From the NCBI RefSeq assembly GCF_057098645.1, contig NZ_CM169472.1: DNA of 64,000 nucleotides; one strand, given 5' to 3'. Each line of letters opens with the position of its first letter. Within the stretch, counting starts at the first letter, position 1. Shown piece by piece: positions 9,001 through 15,000 of the stretch. The position numbers are program-made.

Positions 9001-12000
9001 GTGTGGAGCAACGGCATCAAAAAGTTTATGGCTGAAAAGGGGATTCAGCCGGACCTGATCTACACCTCGGAAGAAGCCGATGCGCCACAGTATATGGAAC
9101 ATCTGGGGATCGAAACGGTGCTGGTAGATCCGAAACGTACCTTTATGAGTATCAGCGGTGCACAGATCCGCGAAAACCCGTTCCGCTACTGGGAATATAT
9201 TCCTACGGAAGTGAAGCCGTTCTTTGTGCGTACCGTGGCGATCCTTGGCGGCGAGTCGAGCGGTAAATCCACCCTGGTAAACAAACTTGCCAATATCTTC
9301 AACACCACCAGTGCGTGGGAATATGGCCGCGATTATGTCTTTTCACACCTCGGCGGTGATGAGATCGCATTGCAGTATTCTGACTACGATAAAATCGCAC
9401 TGGGCCACGCTCAATACATTGATTTTGCGGTGAAATATGCCAATAAAGTGGCATTTATCGATACCGATTTTGTCACCACTCAGGCGTTCTGCAAAAAGTA
9501 CGAGGGACGCGAGCATCCGTTCGTGCAGGCGCTGATTGATGAATACCGTTTTGATCTGGTGATCCTGCTGGAGAACAACACGCCGTGGGTGGCGGATGGT
9601 TTACGCAGCCTCGGCAGTTCGGTGGATCGCAAAGAGTTCCAGAACTTGCTGGTGGAGATGCTCGAAGAGAACAATATCGAATTTGTGCGGGTTGAAGAGG
9701 AAGATTACGACAGCCGTTTCCTGCGCTGCGTGGAGCTGGTGCGGGAGATGATGGGGGAGCAGAGATAACCGTGACGAAACTGCTCAAAGGCGAGGTATAA
9801 AATGAGTTTTTTTGATGAGTTGAAAACCTCTCTGGAAGAGACTGTCGAGATTAGAAAGAACCTGTACGGGTGACCCGCTACGAAATTGCGGATGCTAAGG
9901 CTATTCGTGAGCAACTTCATACTCCAACCGACCGGTTGCGTAGCCAGAATGCAATCAAATCTGACAGTTCGCTTCGGCGCGCGCTTTGGTGTATTTACCG
10001 GAGTAAATCAGCGTGCCGTGGAAAATTATGCGCAGCGCTTCTGCTGATTTGCGTACCTTCGCAGATGATAAGTCCAGCACTGGCGCGCTGCGCGTAATAC
10101 TCCGCCATCATGTCAATCGCAACGTCAACCGCACCGGCGCGGGAACGCGTCATCGGTGGCAGTACAATACGGTTTATTAATGGCAACGCATTCAGCGCAT
10201 ATTTAGCAAATTACGTAATGGGTTCCTCGCGCGATTATTTATACAGTTCGGCACTCATGGTGACGGTATTGCCCATGCGAGCGCTGGTAATTTTGTATTC
10301 AGAGGCGTTCATCTCTTTCGCTTTCTGCGCAATAACCGCTTCAGCGGAATCCAGTGTTGTACCGGTTGCTGTCACGCTTTGCGCCGATGCGTTAAACGCC
10401 GCGACAGAGAAAAGAGAAGCCGTAAAAATTGCGATGATCGTTTTCATGTTTATATTCCAGAGTGTCTTAATTGTTTGGCGTTTATTAACGCGATGGGGAG
10501 AGAATACGCCTGCTGCCTGATAACATAAATGATACAAATGGCAATAGACTATTCTGTTTTTGTTAATAATCAGACGCCGGACGTTCCGACGCCTGTCGAT
10601 CGCATCAGGCAACAAAGTTGTCCTTTAGCGCCTTGAGACCATCCCGATAGATGCCGGTAAACAGCGCCTCGGCCTCTTCGTTCGTCACATTCACCGGGGT
10701 GAATTCACCGAACCATTCCACACGGGAAACCTGGCTGTCGGCGGTTTCATGAACGGTAATGGTGGAGAGGTAATCCACCACCGGGAACGGAGCCTGAATA
10801 ATGGAATAGGTATAACTGCGTTGACGGTTATCAAACGCTTCCAGACGTTCAACCACAGTGCCGCCGTCAGAGGTTGTCAGCGAACGAACGCGACCGCCTT
10901 CTGTCACTACGCTTTTCGGGATGAACGGCAGCCAGTCTGGCAGCGCATCAAAGCCGCCCATCAATTGCCATACGGCGTCGGCAGAAGCCGGAATTTCGAT
11001 CGATACAGTTGTTTTAGCCATGATAATTTTCTCTTAATTTATAGGGTTACATTGTCAGGGTGTCGACGACGCCGCCATCGACGCGCAGGGCTGCCCCTGT
11101 GGTTGCCGAGGAAAGCGGTGACGCGAGATAAACCGCCAGATTCGCCACTTCTTCCACATCTGCTGCACGCTGGATGATGGAACTCGGACGCGAGGTTTTA
11201 ACAAACTCATCGGCCTGTTCACGCGCACTGCGTCCCGATTGTGCAGCGGCATCCGCCAGCATCTCTTTCAGGCCATCGGTAAAGGTTGGCCCTGGCAGAA
11301 TGGCGTTGACGGTCACACCGGTCCCCGCCAGTCGTTTCGCCAGACCATGAGAAACCGCCAGATTCGCGGCTTTGGTGACGCCGTAGTTGATCATGTCGCC
11401 AGGGATTGCCACGCCGGATTCGGACGAGACAAAGATAATCCGCCCCCAGCCCTGTTCCGTCATGCCTGGCGCATAGTGACGCGCCAGACGAACGCCGGAG
11501 AGGACGTTGACGTTATAGAAGTGCATCCACTCATCATCCGGAACGCTAAAGAAATCTTTATCGTTAAAAATGCCCAGATTATTGACCAGCACATCAGCCG
11601 TTGGGACTGCAGCGAGCAGCGCAGCCACGCCGTCTTCGGTGCTGAGATCCGCCACCACGCCGCGCAGTGACGCTGTGGGAGTTTGTGCCGCAATCGCAGC
11701 CATGGCGTCATCAACGCCGCTCTGTTTACGGCCGACGACAACCACCGTTGCGCCTGCTTTTGCCAGTCCGGCGGCGATACCCTGCCCAATGCCGGAGGTT
11801 GAGCCGCTGACCACCGCGACTTTACCTGTCAGATCCAGTTTCATCGTTTTCTCACCAGGTTGATTAACGGGTCGGCAGCGGAGCGTTTTCCGCAACCAGA
11901 TTTTGACGGCACATTTCTGCCCAGAATTCAGCCGGAACAGGCGCATTCAGTGCAGCCAGATCTTCTGCCATACGGCCAGGACGGCTGGAGCCAGGAATAA

Positions 12001-15000
12001 CCGCTGCAACGGCCGGGTTTGCCAGCGCGAACTGCAGCGCAGCCGCTTTAACGTTCACATTGAAACGTGTGGCAATGGCGTTAATTTGCGCCACTTTCTG
12101 CTGGATGGCCGCAGAGGCTTTCTGATATTCAAAGTGCTCGCCGCCTGCCAGTACGCCAGAGCTGTATGGACCGCCCACAACGATATCCACGTTCTGTTCC
12201 AGTGCTTCTGGCATCAGGCGTTGCAGCGCACGTTCGTGATCCAGCAGGGAATAACGCCCCGCCAGCAGGAACGCATCCGGCTTCGGTTCGTCCAGCGCCA
12301 GCGTCAGTTCGCAAGGTTCGACGCGGTTCACACCCAGTCCCCAGGCTTTAATCACACCTTCGTCACGCAAACGCGTCAGCGCACGAAATGCACCGGTACG
12401 GGCAATGTTGAACTGCTCCAGCCAGCTGTCACCGTAGAAGTCCTGCGCCGGGTCGTGGATCCAGACAATGTCCAGACGGTCTGTTTTCAGGCGTTTCAGG
12501 CTGTCTTCAATCGATCGCAGCGTGGCGTCAGCAGAGTAGTCATTCAGAATTTTGTTTTTCAGGCCGTGTTCGAACAGGCCACCTTTTTCACCGAAATCCC
12601 GTTTTGCCGGATCTTCCATTTCGTCCAGCATGATGCGACCGACTTTGCTACTCAGAACGTATTCATCGCGTGGATACTGAGACAGCGCTTCACCCATGCG
12701 GATTTCAGAAAGGCCAGAGCCGTACAGCGGCGCGGTATCAAAGTAACGCACACCCAGGTTCCAGGCTTCGCTCACGGTGGCGTGGGCCTCTTCTTCCGGA
12801 ATGGCACGGAACATGTTGCCAAGTGGTGCGCCGCCTAAGCCAATTTTGCCGGGGAGTAAATTTTTAATGCTCATAAGATGTCCTCAATTATTCGGTTTGG
12901 GTTAGGGCGTTTTTTTGCTATCGCCCTGTGACGTGGATCACAATACCTTGCGAGGTTGTGACTTGATAGGACATAATTCGTCTGACTTAAGTCCTTTGAG
13001 GTCTAACATGATTGATTTACGCCAACTGAAGTACTTCGTGGTGGTCGCAGAAGAAGAGCACGTGGGACGCGCAGCCGAGCGATTACATATCTCGCAATCG
13101 CCGCTGAGCCGCCAGATTGCACAACTGGAAGAACGACTGGGGCTGACGCTGTTTGAGCGTAATCAGCAGCGCATTCGCCTGACCGCTGATGGACAGACAT
13201 TCCTTGCCGAAACACGTTCGTTGCTGACACACGCCAACCGCCTGGAGTCGTTAGGCAAACGCCTGGGACGGGGGGAAGATGGGGGCTTGTGTATTGGCTA
13301 TATCGAAAACGCCATGCATTCCGGTGTACTTTCTACGGCGTTACGTACGTTACGTGTATCGCGTCCGAATGTGCATATCGCTCTTTACAGCCAACCACCG
13401 GCTACCCAGATTGAAGGCCTGCGCCAGCGCAGTCTCGATTTTTCTCTGGTCGATACGCCGCCCGCCGACAGCGAGCAGGATCTGGAATATATTCAGGTTC
13501 TGGATGATCGAATGTTGTTGGCCTTACCGCAAAATCATCCTCTGGCGCAGGAGGAAAACCTTGTCGCGTCACAACTTGGCGATGAGCAGTGGATTGCGGT
13601 GATTCATAACGACGATGCGCATTCTCGCGATCATTTTGTCGCCGCCTGTGTTAACGCCGGGTTTAATCCTGATATTCGCCTGGAAGCGGGTGAACCCCTC
13701 ACGGCATTAGGTCTGGTCGCTGCGGGATTAGGTCTGGCCTTAATTCAACATAGTCTGCGTCATAATGCGCCGGAAGGGGTGGTATTACGTGAATTGCCGT
13801 GGATGAATTATTCAACGCAATTATGGGCAGCCTGGCATAAAGCCAACCAACGTCCGCTGGTTTCCCATTTCCGCCAGATCCTGCGCGGTGAATAAAACGT
13901 TAAGCGGGAACCATGAGTTCCCGCTTGATTTGAGATGTCAGTCCGCATCTGAGCTAATACACTTAAAGAGAATTCTGCCTTTTCGGGGACTCATCATTTA
14001 ACTAATGCCGGATGCGATGCTGGCGCGCCGCACCCGGCATTTTACGCATTACTTCGCAATACGCTTGTACTTGATACGCTTCGGCTCCAGCGCGTCTGCG
14101 CCCAGCGTGCGTTTTTTGTACTCTTCGTATTCGGTAAAGTTACCTTCGAAGAACTCAACTTTACCTTCATCCTGGTAGTCCAGGATGTGCGTGGCGATAC
14201 GGTCGAGGAACCAACGGTCGTGCGAGATAACCATCGCACAGCCCGGGAACTCCAGCAGGGCGTTTTCCAGCGCGCGCAGGGTTTCGATATCCAGGTCGTT
14301 GGTTGGTTCGTCGAGCAGCAGCATGTTGCCGCCAACCTGCAGCAGCTTCGCCAGATGCAGACGACCGCGCTCACCACCGGAAAGTTCACCAACGCGTTTA
14401 CCCTGATCAACCCCTTTAAAGTTAAAGCGGCCAACGTAGGCGCGGCTTGGCATCTCGGTGTTGCCGATCTTCATAATATCCAGCCCGCCGGAAACTTCTT
14501 CCCAAACGGTTTTGCTGTTATCCATTGAGTCACGGAACTGATCAACCGACGCCAGTTTCACCGTTTCACCCAAAGTGATGGTGCCGCTGTCCGGCTGTTC
14601 CTGACCAGAGATCATACGGAACAGGGTCGATTTACCCGCACCGTTCGGACCGATGATCCCGACGATCGCCCCTTTCGGGATCGAGAAGCTCAGGTCATCA
14701 ATCAGCAGGCGATCGCCGTAGGATTTACGCAGGTTGCTGACTTCCAGCACTTTATCGCCCAGACGCGGTCCAGGTGGAATAAACAGTTCGTTGGTTTCGT
14801 TACGTTTCTGGTATTCGGTGCTGTTCAGCTCTTCAAAGCGTGCCAGACGTGCTTTACCTTTCGACTGGCGGCCTTTAGTTCCCTGACGTACCCACTCCAG
14901 CTCTTTCTCGATCGACTTACGACGCGCCGCTTCTTGTGAAGCTTCCTGCGCCAGACGCTGATCTTTCTGCTCCAGCCAGGAGGAGTAGTTACCTTCCCAC

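Follow-up and report, generated by a model that had tools for sequence, protein, structure and literature searches.

In Escherichia coli, the regulator YqhC is encoded divergently from yqhD-dkgA, an aldehyde-induced operon for NADPH-dependent aldehyde reduction that includes the aldo/keto reductase (AKR) DkgA. In the nemRA-gloA electrophile response of the same organism the regulator, NemR, is of the TetR type, and NemA is an N-ethylmaleimide reductase of the Old Yellow Enzyme (OYE) class. Here we compare these systems with a small accessory islet between nadR and ettA on contig NZ_CM169472.1 (assembly GCF_057098645.1), analyzed in a stretch of 64,000 nucleotides that we call the window and to which all coordinates refer unless another locus is named. 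In the islet, the gene of a LysR-type transcriptional regulator (LTTR) is divergent from the genes of an AKR, a short-chain dehydrogenase/reductase (SDR) and an SRPBCC protein, which are followed by a DUF1471 gene. The reading we prefer, with a probability of roughly 0.5, is that the islet encodes enzymes which, once switched on by the LTTR, use NAD(P)H to reduce a carbonyl compound that is reactive or hydrophobic, the AKR having the SRPBCC protein as its partner.

The logic proposed for the islet would be that of YqhC and yqhD-dkgA, but the components differ: YqhC is an AraC-type regulator, YqhD is an iron-dependent alcohol dehydrogenase and there is no SRPBCC protein, whereas the islet has a LysR-type regulator, an SDR and an SRPBCC protein, and the matches of its AKR to DkgA and DkgB, at 1e-6 to 1e-9, fall far short of the cut-offs. 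The likeness to nemRA-gloA lies in an ancestral enterobacterial form of the cassette, where a NemA-type OYE is coupled to carbonyl-handling enzymes; here, however, the regulator is of the LysR type, the OYE, peripheral to the core, survives in E. coli only as a pseudogene, and there is no glyoxalase. The islet belongs to neither system.

The islet genes and the conserved core

Five open reading frames (ORFs) of the islet coincide, at 100% identity, with the RefSeq gene calls of E. coli O145 strain RM9872 (NZ_CP028379.1). The plus strand encodes the LysR-type regulator of 295 aa (13008–13895; Pfam HTH_1 and LysR_substrate). On the minus strand lie the genes for the AKR of 336 aa (11864–12874; PF00248), a classical SDR of 265 aa (11047–11844; adh_short and adh_short_C2), an SRPBCC or Bet v 1-fold protein of the Polyketide_cyc2 type with 138 aa (10605–11021; PF10604) and a small, predicted exported DUF1471 (YdgH/BhsA/McbA-like) protein of 70 aa (10235–10447; PF07338). 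An earlier reading of the window, made from the sequence alone (hereafter the sequence-only reading), had given these five genes with their coordinates and families, and the ORF list, the RefSeq calls and a Pfam search agree with it throughout. Its gene list was incomplete, as it missed a sixth gene, the pseudogene of a NemA-like alkene reductase of the OYE type (9917–10216, minus strand), whose residual ORF matches the N-ethylmaleimide reductase family NF007899 at 7e-13. The spacers measure 19 nt between the AKR and SDR genes, 25 nt between the SDR and SRPBCC genes and 157 nt between the SRPBCC and DUF1471 genes, and the divergent intergenic region measures 133 nt.

The AKR matches PF00248 at 2.2e-44 over residues 10–321 of 336, which places it in the superfamily, and its candidate catalytic tetrad, D46-Y51-K77-H140 as assigned by motif position, is invariant in a cross-phylum alignment of nine sequences. 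The SDR has the motifs of the classical type (SGSTSGIG at 13–20, NNLG at 88, SSES at 140 and Y154-GVT-K158; PF00106 and PF13561). After its strand beta-2 it carries G38-R39-K40, an NADP(H)-type signature; by the established coenzyme rules for classical SDRs this implies that the enzyme uses NADP(H) and thus acts as a reductase in vivo. Among solved SDRs the nearest is 8G9M from Acinetobacter baumannii (8.5e-138 over residues 1–263), whose natural substrate is not known according to its authors (PMC10889901); SDR 3T4X from Bacillus anthracis follows at 2.7e-70, and the tetrameric classical SDR architecture is common to them.

The SRPBCC protein is a member of its superfamily over nearly its whole length (PF10604 at 1.9e-30, residues 1–136). 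Its full-length matches of solved structure, Bacillus cereus ‘XoxI’ (PDB 3CNW, 4e-52) and B. thuringiensis Q6HG14 (3F08, 1e-50), are structural-genomics entries without an assigned function. A distant match to PYL, at about 1e-3 to 1e-4, links it to the PYR/PYL abscisic-acid receptors, with which it and the two Bacillus proteins have in common a helix-grip fold with a ligand cavity. The DUF1471 protein matches PF07338 (YdgH_BhsA-like) at 3.3e-11 over residues 24–70, and its N-terminus reads as a signal-like hydrophobic segment, MKTIIAIFTASLFSVAAFNASA, ending in ...NASA-QS. It scores 26–31 bits on the BhsA, RclB, YhcN and YbiJ equivalogs of NCBIfam, against cut-offs of 90–125, and by these scores is a distinct DUF1471 paralogue.

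The regulator has both domains of an LTTR (PF00126 at 4e-24, residues 4–63; PF03466 at 1.4e-38, residues 88–293). Its closest solved relative is ItcR (PDB 7W06–7W08; 7W06 at 4e-37), a sensor of itaconate (PMC9636186). Like ItcR, AlsR and BenM/CatM it has a divergent-operon arrangement and a T-N11-A box, but it scores 223 bits on AlsR against a cut-off of 430 and 206 bits on PRK09986, and falls below the cut-offs of all the NCBIfam equivalogs, those of AlsR, HcaR, GltC, CatM and OxyR among them. With scores so far below the cut-offs it is not an orthologue of ItcR, AlsR or BenM/CatM. More generally, none of the five islet proteins reaches an NCBIfam equivalog cut-off, and therefore none is orthologous to a named, characterized protein.

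The arrangement recurs in other bacteria. The SRPBCC protein is 81–92% identical in Citrobacter, Enterobacter, Klebsiella, Yokenella, Trabulsiella and Yersinia, and several of its Klebsiella clusters comprise at least 1000 contigs each. In Citrobacter, Klebsiella, Enterobacter, Yersinia and Pseudomonas a LysR gene divergent from AKR-SDR-SRPBCC occupies chromosomal sites that are unrelated; this gene order in five genera, together with the conserved intergenic region, supports the earlier proposal of a regulator divergent from a three-gene operon. Beyond these genes the cassettes vary: Citrobacter farmeri has both DUF1471 and an intact OYE, Klebsiella pneumoniae and Yersinia frederiksenii have DUF1471 without OYE, and Enterobacter roggenkampii has neither, while Pseudomonas simiae carries the full four-gene form. 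The genes of more distant SRPBCC relatives (about 55% identity) directly follow that of the orthologous AKR, and there is no SDR. A beta-proteobacterium-like contig has LysR divergent from AKR-SRPBCC, with the last two ORFs 1 nt apart and the AKR and LysR 74% and 69% identical to those of E. coli; high-GC actinobacterial contigs have AKR-SRPBCC with an AKR of 68% identity; and Gottfriedia (Bacillaceae) has an OYE, an HxlR-type regulator and then AKR-SRPBCC with overlapping ORFs.

A scan with one genome per species gave at least 591 AKR orthologues, and the locus counts in this paper refer to the best 80. These are 68–86% identical (75–76% outside Serratia) and span Pseudomonas, Burkholderiales, Streptomyces, Saccharopolyspora, Arthrobacter, Bacillaceae, Paenibacillus, Stenotrophomonas, Rheinheimera, Dyadobacter, Azospirillum, Caulobacter and Sorangium. 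The AKR is the most conserved gene of the cassette, at 68–78% identity in Pseudomonas, Burkholderiales, Streptomyces, Bacillaceae, Dyadobacter, Caulobacter and Sorangium. A divergent LysR orthologue (60–73% identity) is present in 51 of the 77 assessable loci, and in 55 of 74 the operon has an SRPBCC gene downstream of that for the AKR, while an SDR orthologue stands between the two in 21–22 of the 80, all of them Pseudomonas. Judged by gene order, then, the conserved functional core is LysR divergent from AKR-SRPBCC, not the AKR-SDR-SRPBCC unit of the sequence-only reading; the SDR is a gamma-proteobacterial addition, and DUF1471 and the OYE enterobacterial extras. The suggestion that the SRPBCC protein acts as a partner has gained from the comparison, since its gene follows that of the AKR so often and in places overlaps it or is separated from it by 1 nt.

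The AKR and SRPBCC ORFs of two distant taxa are separated by 1 nt (L016, 4999/5001) or share 4 nt (L025, 6017–6020), a spacing that suggests translational coupling. In Marininema mesophilum a paralogous AKR, an SRPBCC protein and the orthologous AKR are encoded in that order (L085, 4138–5142, 5149–5565 and 6001–6999), with an HxlR homologue 3.6 kb upstream. A metagenome protein of 217 aa, P0128, runs from the C-terminus of an AKR straight into an SRPBCC domain, and may be a natural fusion or an artefact, as it comes from a contig-end fragment. We set such AKR-SRPBCC read-through ORFs aside, one being this contig-end fragment and another apparently frameshifted, and also rejected SRPBCC fusions as clues to function, the longer homologues being mostly secreted tandem SRPBCC proteins.

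The GC content at third codon positions (GC3) of the AKR gene ranges from 0.17 in Bacillus to 0.97 in Streptomyces, i.e., it is fully adapted to the host. An identity of about 70% must therefore reflect long-term constraint, and recent transfer across phyla was rejected as the cause of AKR conservation.

The divergent control region

The divergent control region (12875–13007) was analyzed with a promoter scan and intergenic alignments. Over the lysR-proximal 95 nt of this region, E. coli shares 84–94% identity with Citrobacter, Klebsiella, Enterobacter and Yersinia, whereas its coding genes share only 75–82% with the last three of these. On the plus strand a lysR promoter is predicted by the consensus scan, TTGCGA (12948–12953) and CATAAT (12972–12977) with a spacing of 18, and a T-N11-A box, TTATG-N11-CACAA (12956–12976), overlaps its predicted -10 element. 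A T-N11-A box over the regulator's own -10 is the classical layout of LTTR autorepression, and with the divergent operon and the box on its predicted promoter the islet appears to follow the LTTR layout. Just beyond the box lies a 10-bp palindrome, GACTTAAGTC (12984–12993).

The conservation extends across phyla. In 57 intergenic regions anchored at the lysR start, a block of about 65 nt next to that start, which we take as operator and promoter, is conserved in gamma- and beta-Proteobacteria and in Actinobacteria, with the consensus gT.AGACCT.t.gGGACTcAAGT..g.C.aAtTATGTCTTGGAC.GtCt.Aac...gcAa.CTAg..Tc. The block has a TAnnnT -10 at a fixed position, and its pattern of indels and conservation is unlike that of coding sequence. 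It is kept (window 12940–13007; loci L026–L105) despite genome GC contents of 52–73%. In Enterobacterales the center of the operator reads GTCCTATCAAGTCAyAAC in place of GTCTTGGACrGTCy.A.C. The conserved CTAnnnT column plausibly corresponds to TATTGT (12945 to 12940, minus strand) as the -10 element of the AKR promoter. With the start placed accordingly, the conserved blocks would fall at about -23 to -71, which fits the usual LTTR activation site near -35 and recognition site near -65.

The control region also contains a perfect CRP-type core, TGTGA-N6-TCACA (TGTGACGTGGATCACA, 12927–12942), the sole one in the window, where 0.03 would be expected. It is invariant in five enterobacterial genera, but outside Enterobacterales only its right half is conserved, as seen in Pseudomonas and Burkholderiales. 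By the starts placed above it would lie around +1 with respect to the AKR promoter and around -49.5 with respect to that of lysR. CRP activates from positions such as -41.5 and -61.5. Because of the half-conservation and of a position that would not be an activating one, we did not adopt activation by CRP.

Directly 3′ of the SRPBCC stop codon there is a hairpin with an 11-bp stem (10571–10595, minus strand; -18.1 kcal/mol, z = -2.2), followed by AUUAUUAAC without a clean U-run, which may be a weak terminator or an RNA-stabilizing end of the three-gene operon. Farther along the same strand, TTGCCA, 16 nt and TGtTATCAG (10517–10544) were picked out by eye as a candidate DUF1471 promoter; the hairpin and this element make a separate DUF1471 promoter plausible. 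The consensus scan gave no minus-strand promoter at 10517–10544, and the spacer between the SRPBCC and DUF1471 genes is poorly conserved between genera (37–78%). A second hairpin, 4 nt past the lysR stop codon (13899–13929, plus strand; -20 kcal/mol, z = -5.2), is also matched by the terminator scan and is likely the lysR terminator; it sits within the inserted DNA, before the 3′ fragment of nadS described below. No Rfam family matches in 9500–14300 at E ≤ 0.1.

Insertion site, distribution and decay in E. coli

The sequence-only reading had drawn the islet from 9769 to 14048. Its presence and its locus stand, but the insert proper is 9917–13958 (4042 bp), and that it lies inside a gene, nadS, had been missed. 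In an alignment to the full-length nadS of strain 14EC020, homology stops at 9916 (nadS nt 125) and restarts at 13959 (nt 238); the insert replaces 112 bp in the middle of nadS (nt 126–237) and leaves pieces of the gene on either side. The 5′ fragment (9802–9916, plus strand) comes from a NadS-family antitoxin gene of the HigA/MqsA-like helix-turn-helix type and is frameshifted by a 10-bp deletion, so that the remaining product translates as MSFFDELKTSLEETVEIRKNLYG up to the stop codon. The 3′ fragment (13959–13992, plus strand) has small deletions in the region of the stop codon. Full-length NadS, of 94 aa, scores 183 bits on the NadS family NF041265.

Of 5426 complete E. coli genomes searched with a query that includes both flanks, 482 (about 9%) have the full arrangement. 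A query with the insert alone also matches 482 genomes, in every case as a single chromosomal copy between nadR and ettA, at 97.8–100% identity. The carriers are O145:H28 and assorted human, dog, pig and poultry isolates, and the islet is absent from a K-12-like strain of 4.63 Mb (L002), from BL21 and from O157:H7. This distribution bears out the proposal that the islet is accessory. The insert was not found on plasmids in a megablast search against 72,556 of them; the flank-spanning query gave three plasmid matches, which are due to the flanking DNA, and plasmid carriage was rejected. No integrase, transposase or tRNA gene accompanies the insert in the ORF list or the RefSeq annotation, no search being aimed at junction repeats. 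With the middle of nadS as its target and no plasmid copy, the islet does not qualify as a mobile genomic island. Its GC content is 0.54, compared with 0.51 for the window.

The nadR-ettA interval of E. coli occurs in at least three states. In K-12, BL21 and O157 there is a truncated nadS of 55 aa and then a repeat resembling repetitive extragenic palindromes (REP-like). Other strains have a gene for a RelE/ParE-family toxin together with the full 94-aa nadS, which looks like an intact toxin–antitoxin pair. In the third state nadS is split by the islet; the toxin gene is missing from this state and from the first. The statement in the sequence-only reading that nadR is followed directly by ettA in K-12 is essentially right, because nadS is a recent PGAP annotation absent from EcoCyc (PMC12350097), although RefSeq now places the truncated gene between the two. 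The insertion into nadS almost certainly happened in an ancestor from which some E. coli lineages descend, and the insert has been trimmed since.

The trimming is seen most clearly in the OYE gene. Compared with the intact 365-aa OYE of C. farmeri (L005; PF00724), which starts 18 nt past DUF1471, the E. coli remnant has ACG in place of the former ATG (10216–10214), an internal deletion of about 690 bp with its junction at 10042/10043, and a degenerate, truncated 3′ end, so that only about 300 nt are left. RefSeq labels the remnant ‘alkene reductase, incomplete’ in other E. coli strains, and the OYE is dead in every E. coli copy examined. When three E. coli arrangements were aligned with the intact gene, all showed this same internal deletion, strains with different left-end cargo among them, which speaks for a single acquisition with subsequent decay and local rearrangement.

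The left end of the islet varies between strains. In F344 it carries a gene for a GNAT acetyltransferase (L013, 1275–1823). We considered this gene as less-decayed cargo of the Citrobacter type and rejected the idea, since it is unrelated to the GNAT gene near the Citrobacter OYE (BLASTP E = 0.056). In GPEC606 and E300010 the left end has a TauE/SafE exporter gene and a ModE-like winged helix-turn-helix gene (L014, 1459–2662; L015). In E300010 a deletion also fuses the SDR and SRPBCC genes, and an IS1 adjoins nadR; ECOCN22 has an IS1397 insertion in its islet variant.

The five surviving genes, by contrast with the OYE, are under strong purifying selection. The ratio of non-synonymous to synonymous substitution rates (dN/dS) is about 0.03–0.1 for all five, both within E. 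coli, where dS is 0.04–0.15, and against Citrobacter, where it is 0.37–0.78; by gene it is 0.03–0.06 for the AKR and 0.02–0.04 for the DUF1471 protein.

Proposed function and rival readings

In the proposed mechanism, the LysR-type regulator would bind the conserved operator in the 133-nt intergenic region and repress its own promoter through the T-N11-A box over the lysR -10; loaded with a small-molecule inducer, it would switch on the divergent three-gene operon. The AKR and the NADP(H)-type SDR would most likely reduce an aldehyde, ketone or dicarbonyl, reactive or hydrophobic in nature, at its carbonyl groups, and the SRPBCC protein would most likely work with the AKR, either by holding the hydrophobic substrate or product or by performing a non-redox step. 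The DUF1471 protein would be an exported accessory of the stress type. In the ancestral enterobacterial form, the OYE encoded after DUF1471 would have reduced the C=C bond of alpha,beta-unsaturated carbonyls. We infer co-transcription, control by LysR, the direction of catalysis and the class of substrate with unequal confidence: the regulated-operon model is quite probable, while a carbonyl as the chemical class of the substrate is held tentatively, at a little under even odds.

What makes the carbonyl or electrophile reading plausible is a single line of evidence, the recurrent neighbors of the AKR, which are of the OYE, DJ-1/HchA-like, DkgA-like and HxlR types. A NemA-type OYE lies near the AKR orthologue in Citrobacter and E. 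coli, in Pseudomonas nitroreducens and in Rheinheimera, where it is the upstream gene, and more distant OYE homologues lie near it in Gottfriedia, which also has the HxlR-type regulator, and in Cupriavidus. In Caulobacter and Asticcacaulis a DJ-1/HchA-like gene of the glyoxalase III type stands immediately upstream of the AKR on the same strand, and in one Streptomyces a DkgA-like AKR is encoded upstream (coordinates of the neighbors in Caulobacter, Asticcacaulis, Rheinheimera and Streptomyces: L100 4805–5608; L102 4824–5642; L101 4757–5920; L062 5043–5930). Elsewhere the neighbors include ArsR and TetR regulators and an MFS efflux gene. Among the recurrent neighbors of the AKR in the 80 loci there is no sugar transporter, lactonase, dehydratase or kinase.

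Several points weigh against this reading. The OYE is found in 3 and HxlR in 2 of the 80 loci, and since OYE, DJ-1 and HxlR neighbors are a minority, the carbonyl or electrophile inference is soft. The identity of about 70% that the AKR keeps across phyla suggests one specific, ubiquitous substrate over broad xenobiotic detoxification; a perfect CRP-type palindrome in the promoter would be unusual for a pure stress operon; and the transcription start sites have all been placed by inference. A literature search by gene, family and enzyme names, RefSeq accessions and PDB codes found no paper on the cassette and no experimental result for any of its genes, the one Klebsiella paper that matched its search terms dealing with other loci. 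Finally, the closest characterized AKRs are plant L-galactose dehydrogenases (PDB 8SCC, 7SMI and 7EZI; 1.7e-29 to 2e-22), and annotation pipelines, both at JGI and at NCBI, automatically name the AKR orthologues ‘D-threo-aldose 1-dehydrogenase’; an oxidative, sugar-directed role therefore stays a rival. Such enzymes have been characterized in bacteria, namely Fdh of Pseudomonas sp. 1143 and TadH of P. caryophylli (PMC10079672), and ‘closest characterized’ here refers to a comparison that leaves out these two sequences.

That rival would make the islet a catabolic, oxidative module, in which the AKR is an NAD(P)+-dependent 1-dehydrogenase of an aldose of the D-threo-aldose, L-fucose or L-galactose type, the SDR oxidizes or reduces the next intermediate, and expression is tied to carbon status through CRP. 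Besides the names and the best match, it can draw on the resemblance of the SDR to NADPH-sorbose reductase and to SDRs of the glucose 1-dehydrogenase type, and on the perfect CRP-type palindrome in the promoter, conserved in five enterobacterial genera. The palindrome, however, has a left half that is not conserved outside Enterobacterales, and it would straddle the AKR start, which is not an activating position. The match to L-galactose dehydrogenase is weak and concentrated in residues 10–81, mostly the N-terminal 70 residues, and with no sugar-pathway context in the 80 loci it does not place the AKR in EC 1.1.1.122; the neighbors that do occur are of the detoxification type, and the GRK motif of the SDR suits a reductive role. 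On balance we regard an aldose or alcohol dehydrogenase module as decidedly doubtful. It is unlikely, though less so, that the unit serves one specific and widespread hydrophobic molecule, such as a signal, a precursor of a secondary metabolite, or a lipid-derived ketone or lactone, with the SRPBCC protein catalytic or specificity-determining (cyclase- or dehydratase-like), the AKR its dedicated redox partner, and SDR, DUF1471 and OYE later add-ons. True enzymes do occur among SRPBCC proteins, for example polyketide cyclases and norcoclaurine synthase. Such a role would agree with a conserved core in which the AKR-SRPBCC pair comes with an operator and its cognate LysR, with the apparently tight translational coupling of the two genes, with the metagenomic ORF that joins them, and with an AKR extremely constrained despite full compositional amelioration. 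Against it, biosynthetic genes do not recur nearby, the joined ORF is a single contig-end fragment that may be an artefact, and 23 of the 80 AKR loci lack SRPBCC in the operon, so an AKR need not have an SRPBCC gene beside it to work.

A further possibility, to which we give some credence while still thinking it rather unlikely, is that LysR, operator, AKR and SRPBCC make up an ancient unit, kept by vertical descent, that senses and converts one specific, ubiquitous metabolite or toxicant. The SRPBCC protein would then be an obligatory subunit or co-catalyst of the AKR, a kind of two-protein enzyme not yet described for AKRs, and the islet of E. coli a decayed outpost of that system. This possibility is raised by the AKR identity of about 70% between Bacillus, Streptomyces and E. 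coli at GC3 values of 0.17–0.97, by the cross-phylum operator and by the AKR-SRPBCC coupling. At the other extreme, the islet might be a decaying remnant without present function in E. coli, merely not yet deleted, as the destroyed OYE, the split nadS, the left end that differs between strains, the fused SDR and SRPBCC genes of one strain (L015) and the 91% of genomes that do without the islet could suggest. But in the window, as in every other islet strain examined except L015, the five genes are intact, and the operator is intact as well; the low dN/dS over the divergence seen within E. coli contradicts the idea, which we consider very improbable.

Every gene of the islet is from a well-known family, and RefSeq already annotates each of them generically; the distinctive part is the unusually constrained core of LysR, operator, AKR and SRPBCC. 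The E. coli islet itself is a modest find, a lineage-restricted accessory redox operon that overturns no expectation and opens no long-standing question, but it could aid the tolerance of a carbonyl compound derived from the host, from plants or from disinfectants. The cassette, with or without the SDR, is found on very many K. pneumoniae contigs and is common in many sampled Pseudomonas species, Burkholderiales, Streptomyces and Bacillaceae. With a recognizable operator and its cognate regulator it lends itself readily to reporter-based screens for inducers, and it could yield a new biosensor and may show what role a bacterial Bet v 1-fold protein has beside an AKR.

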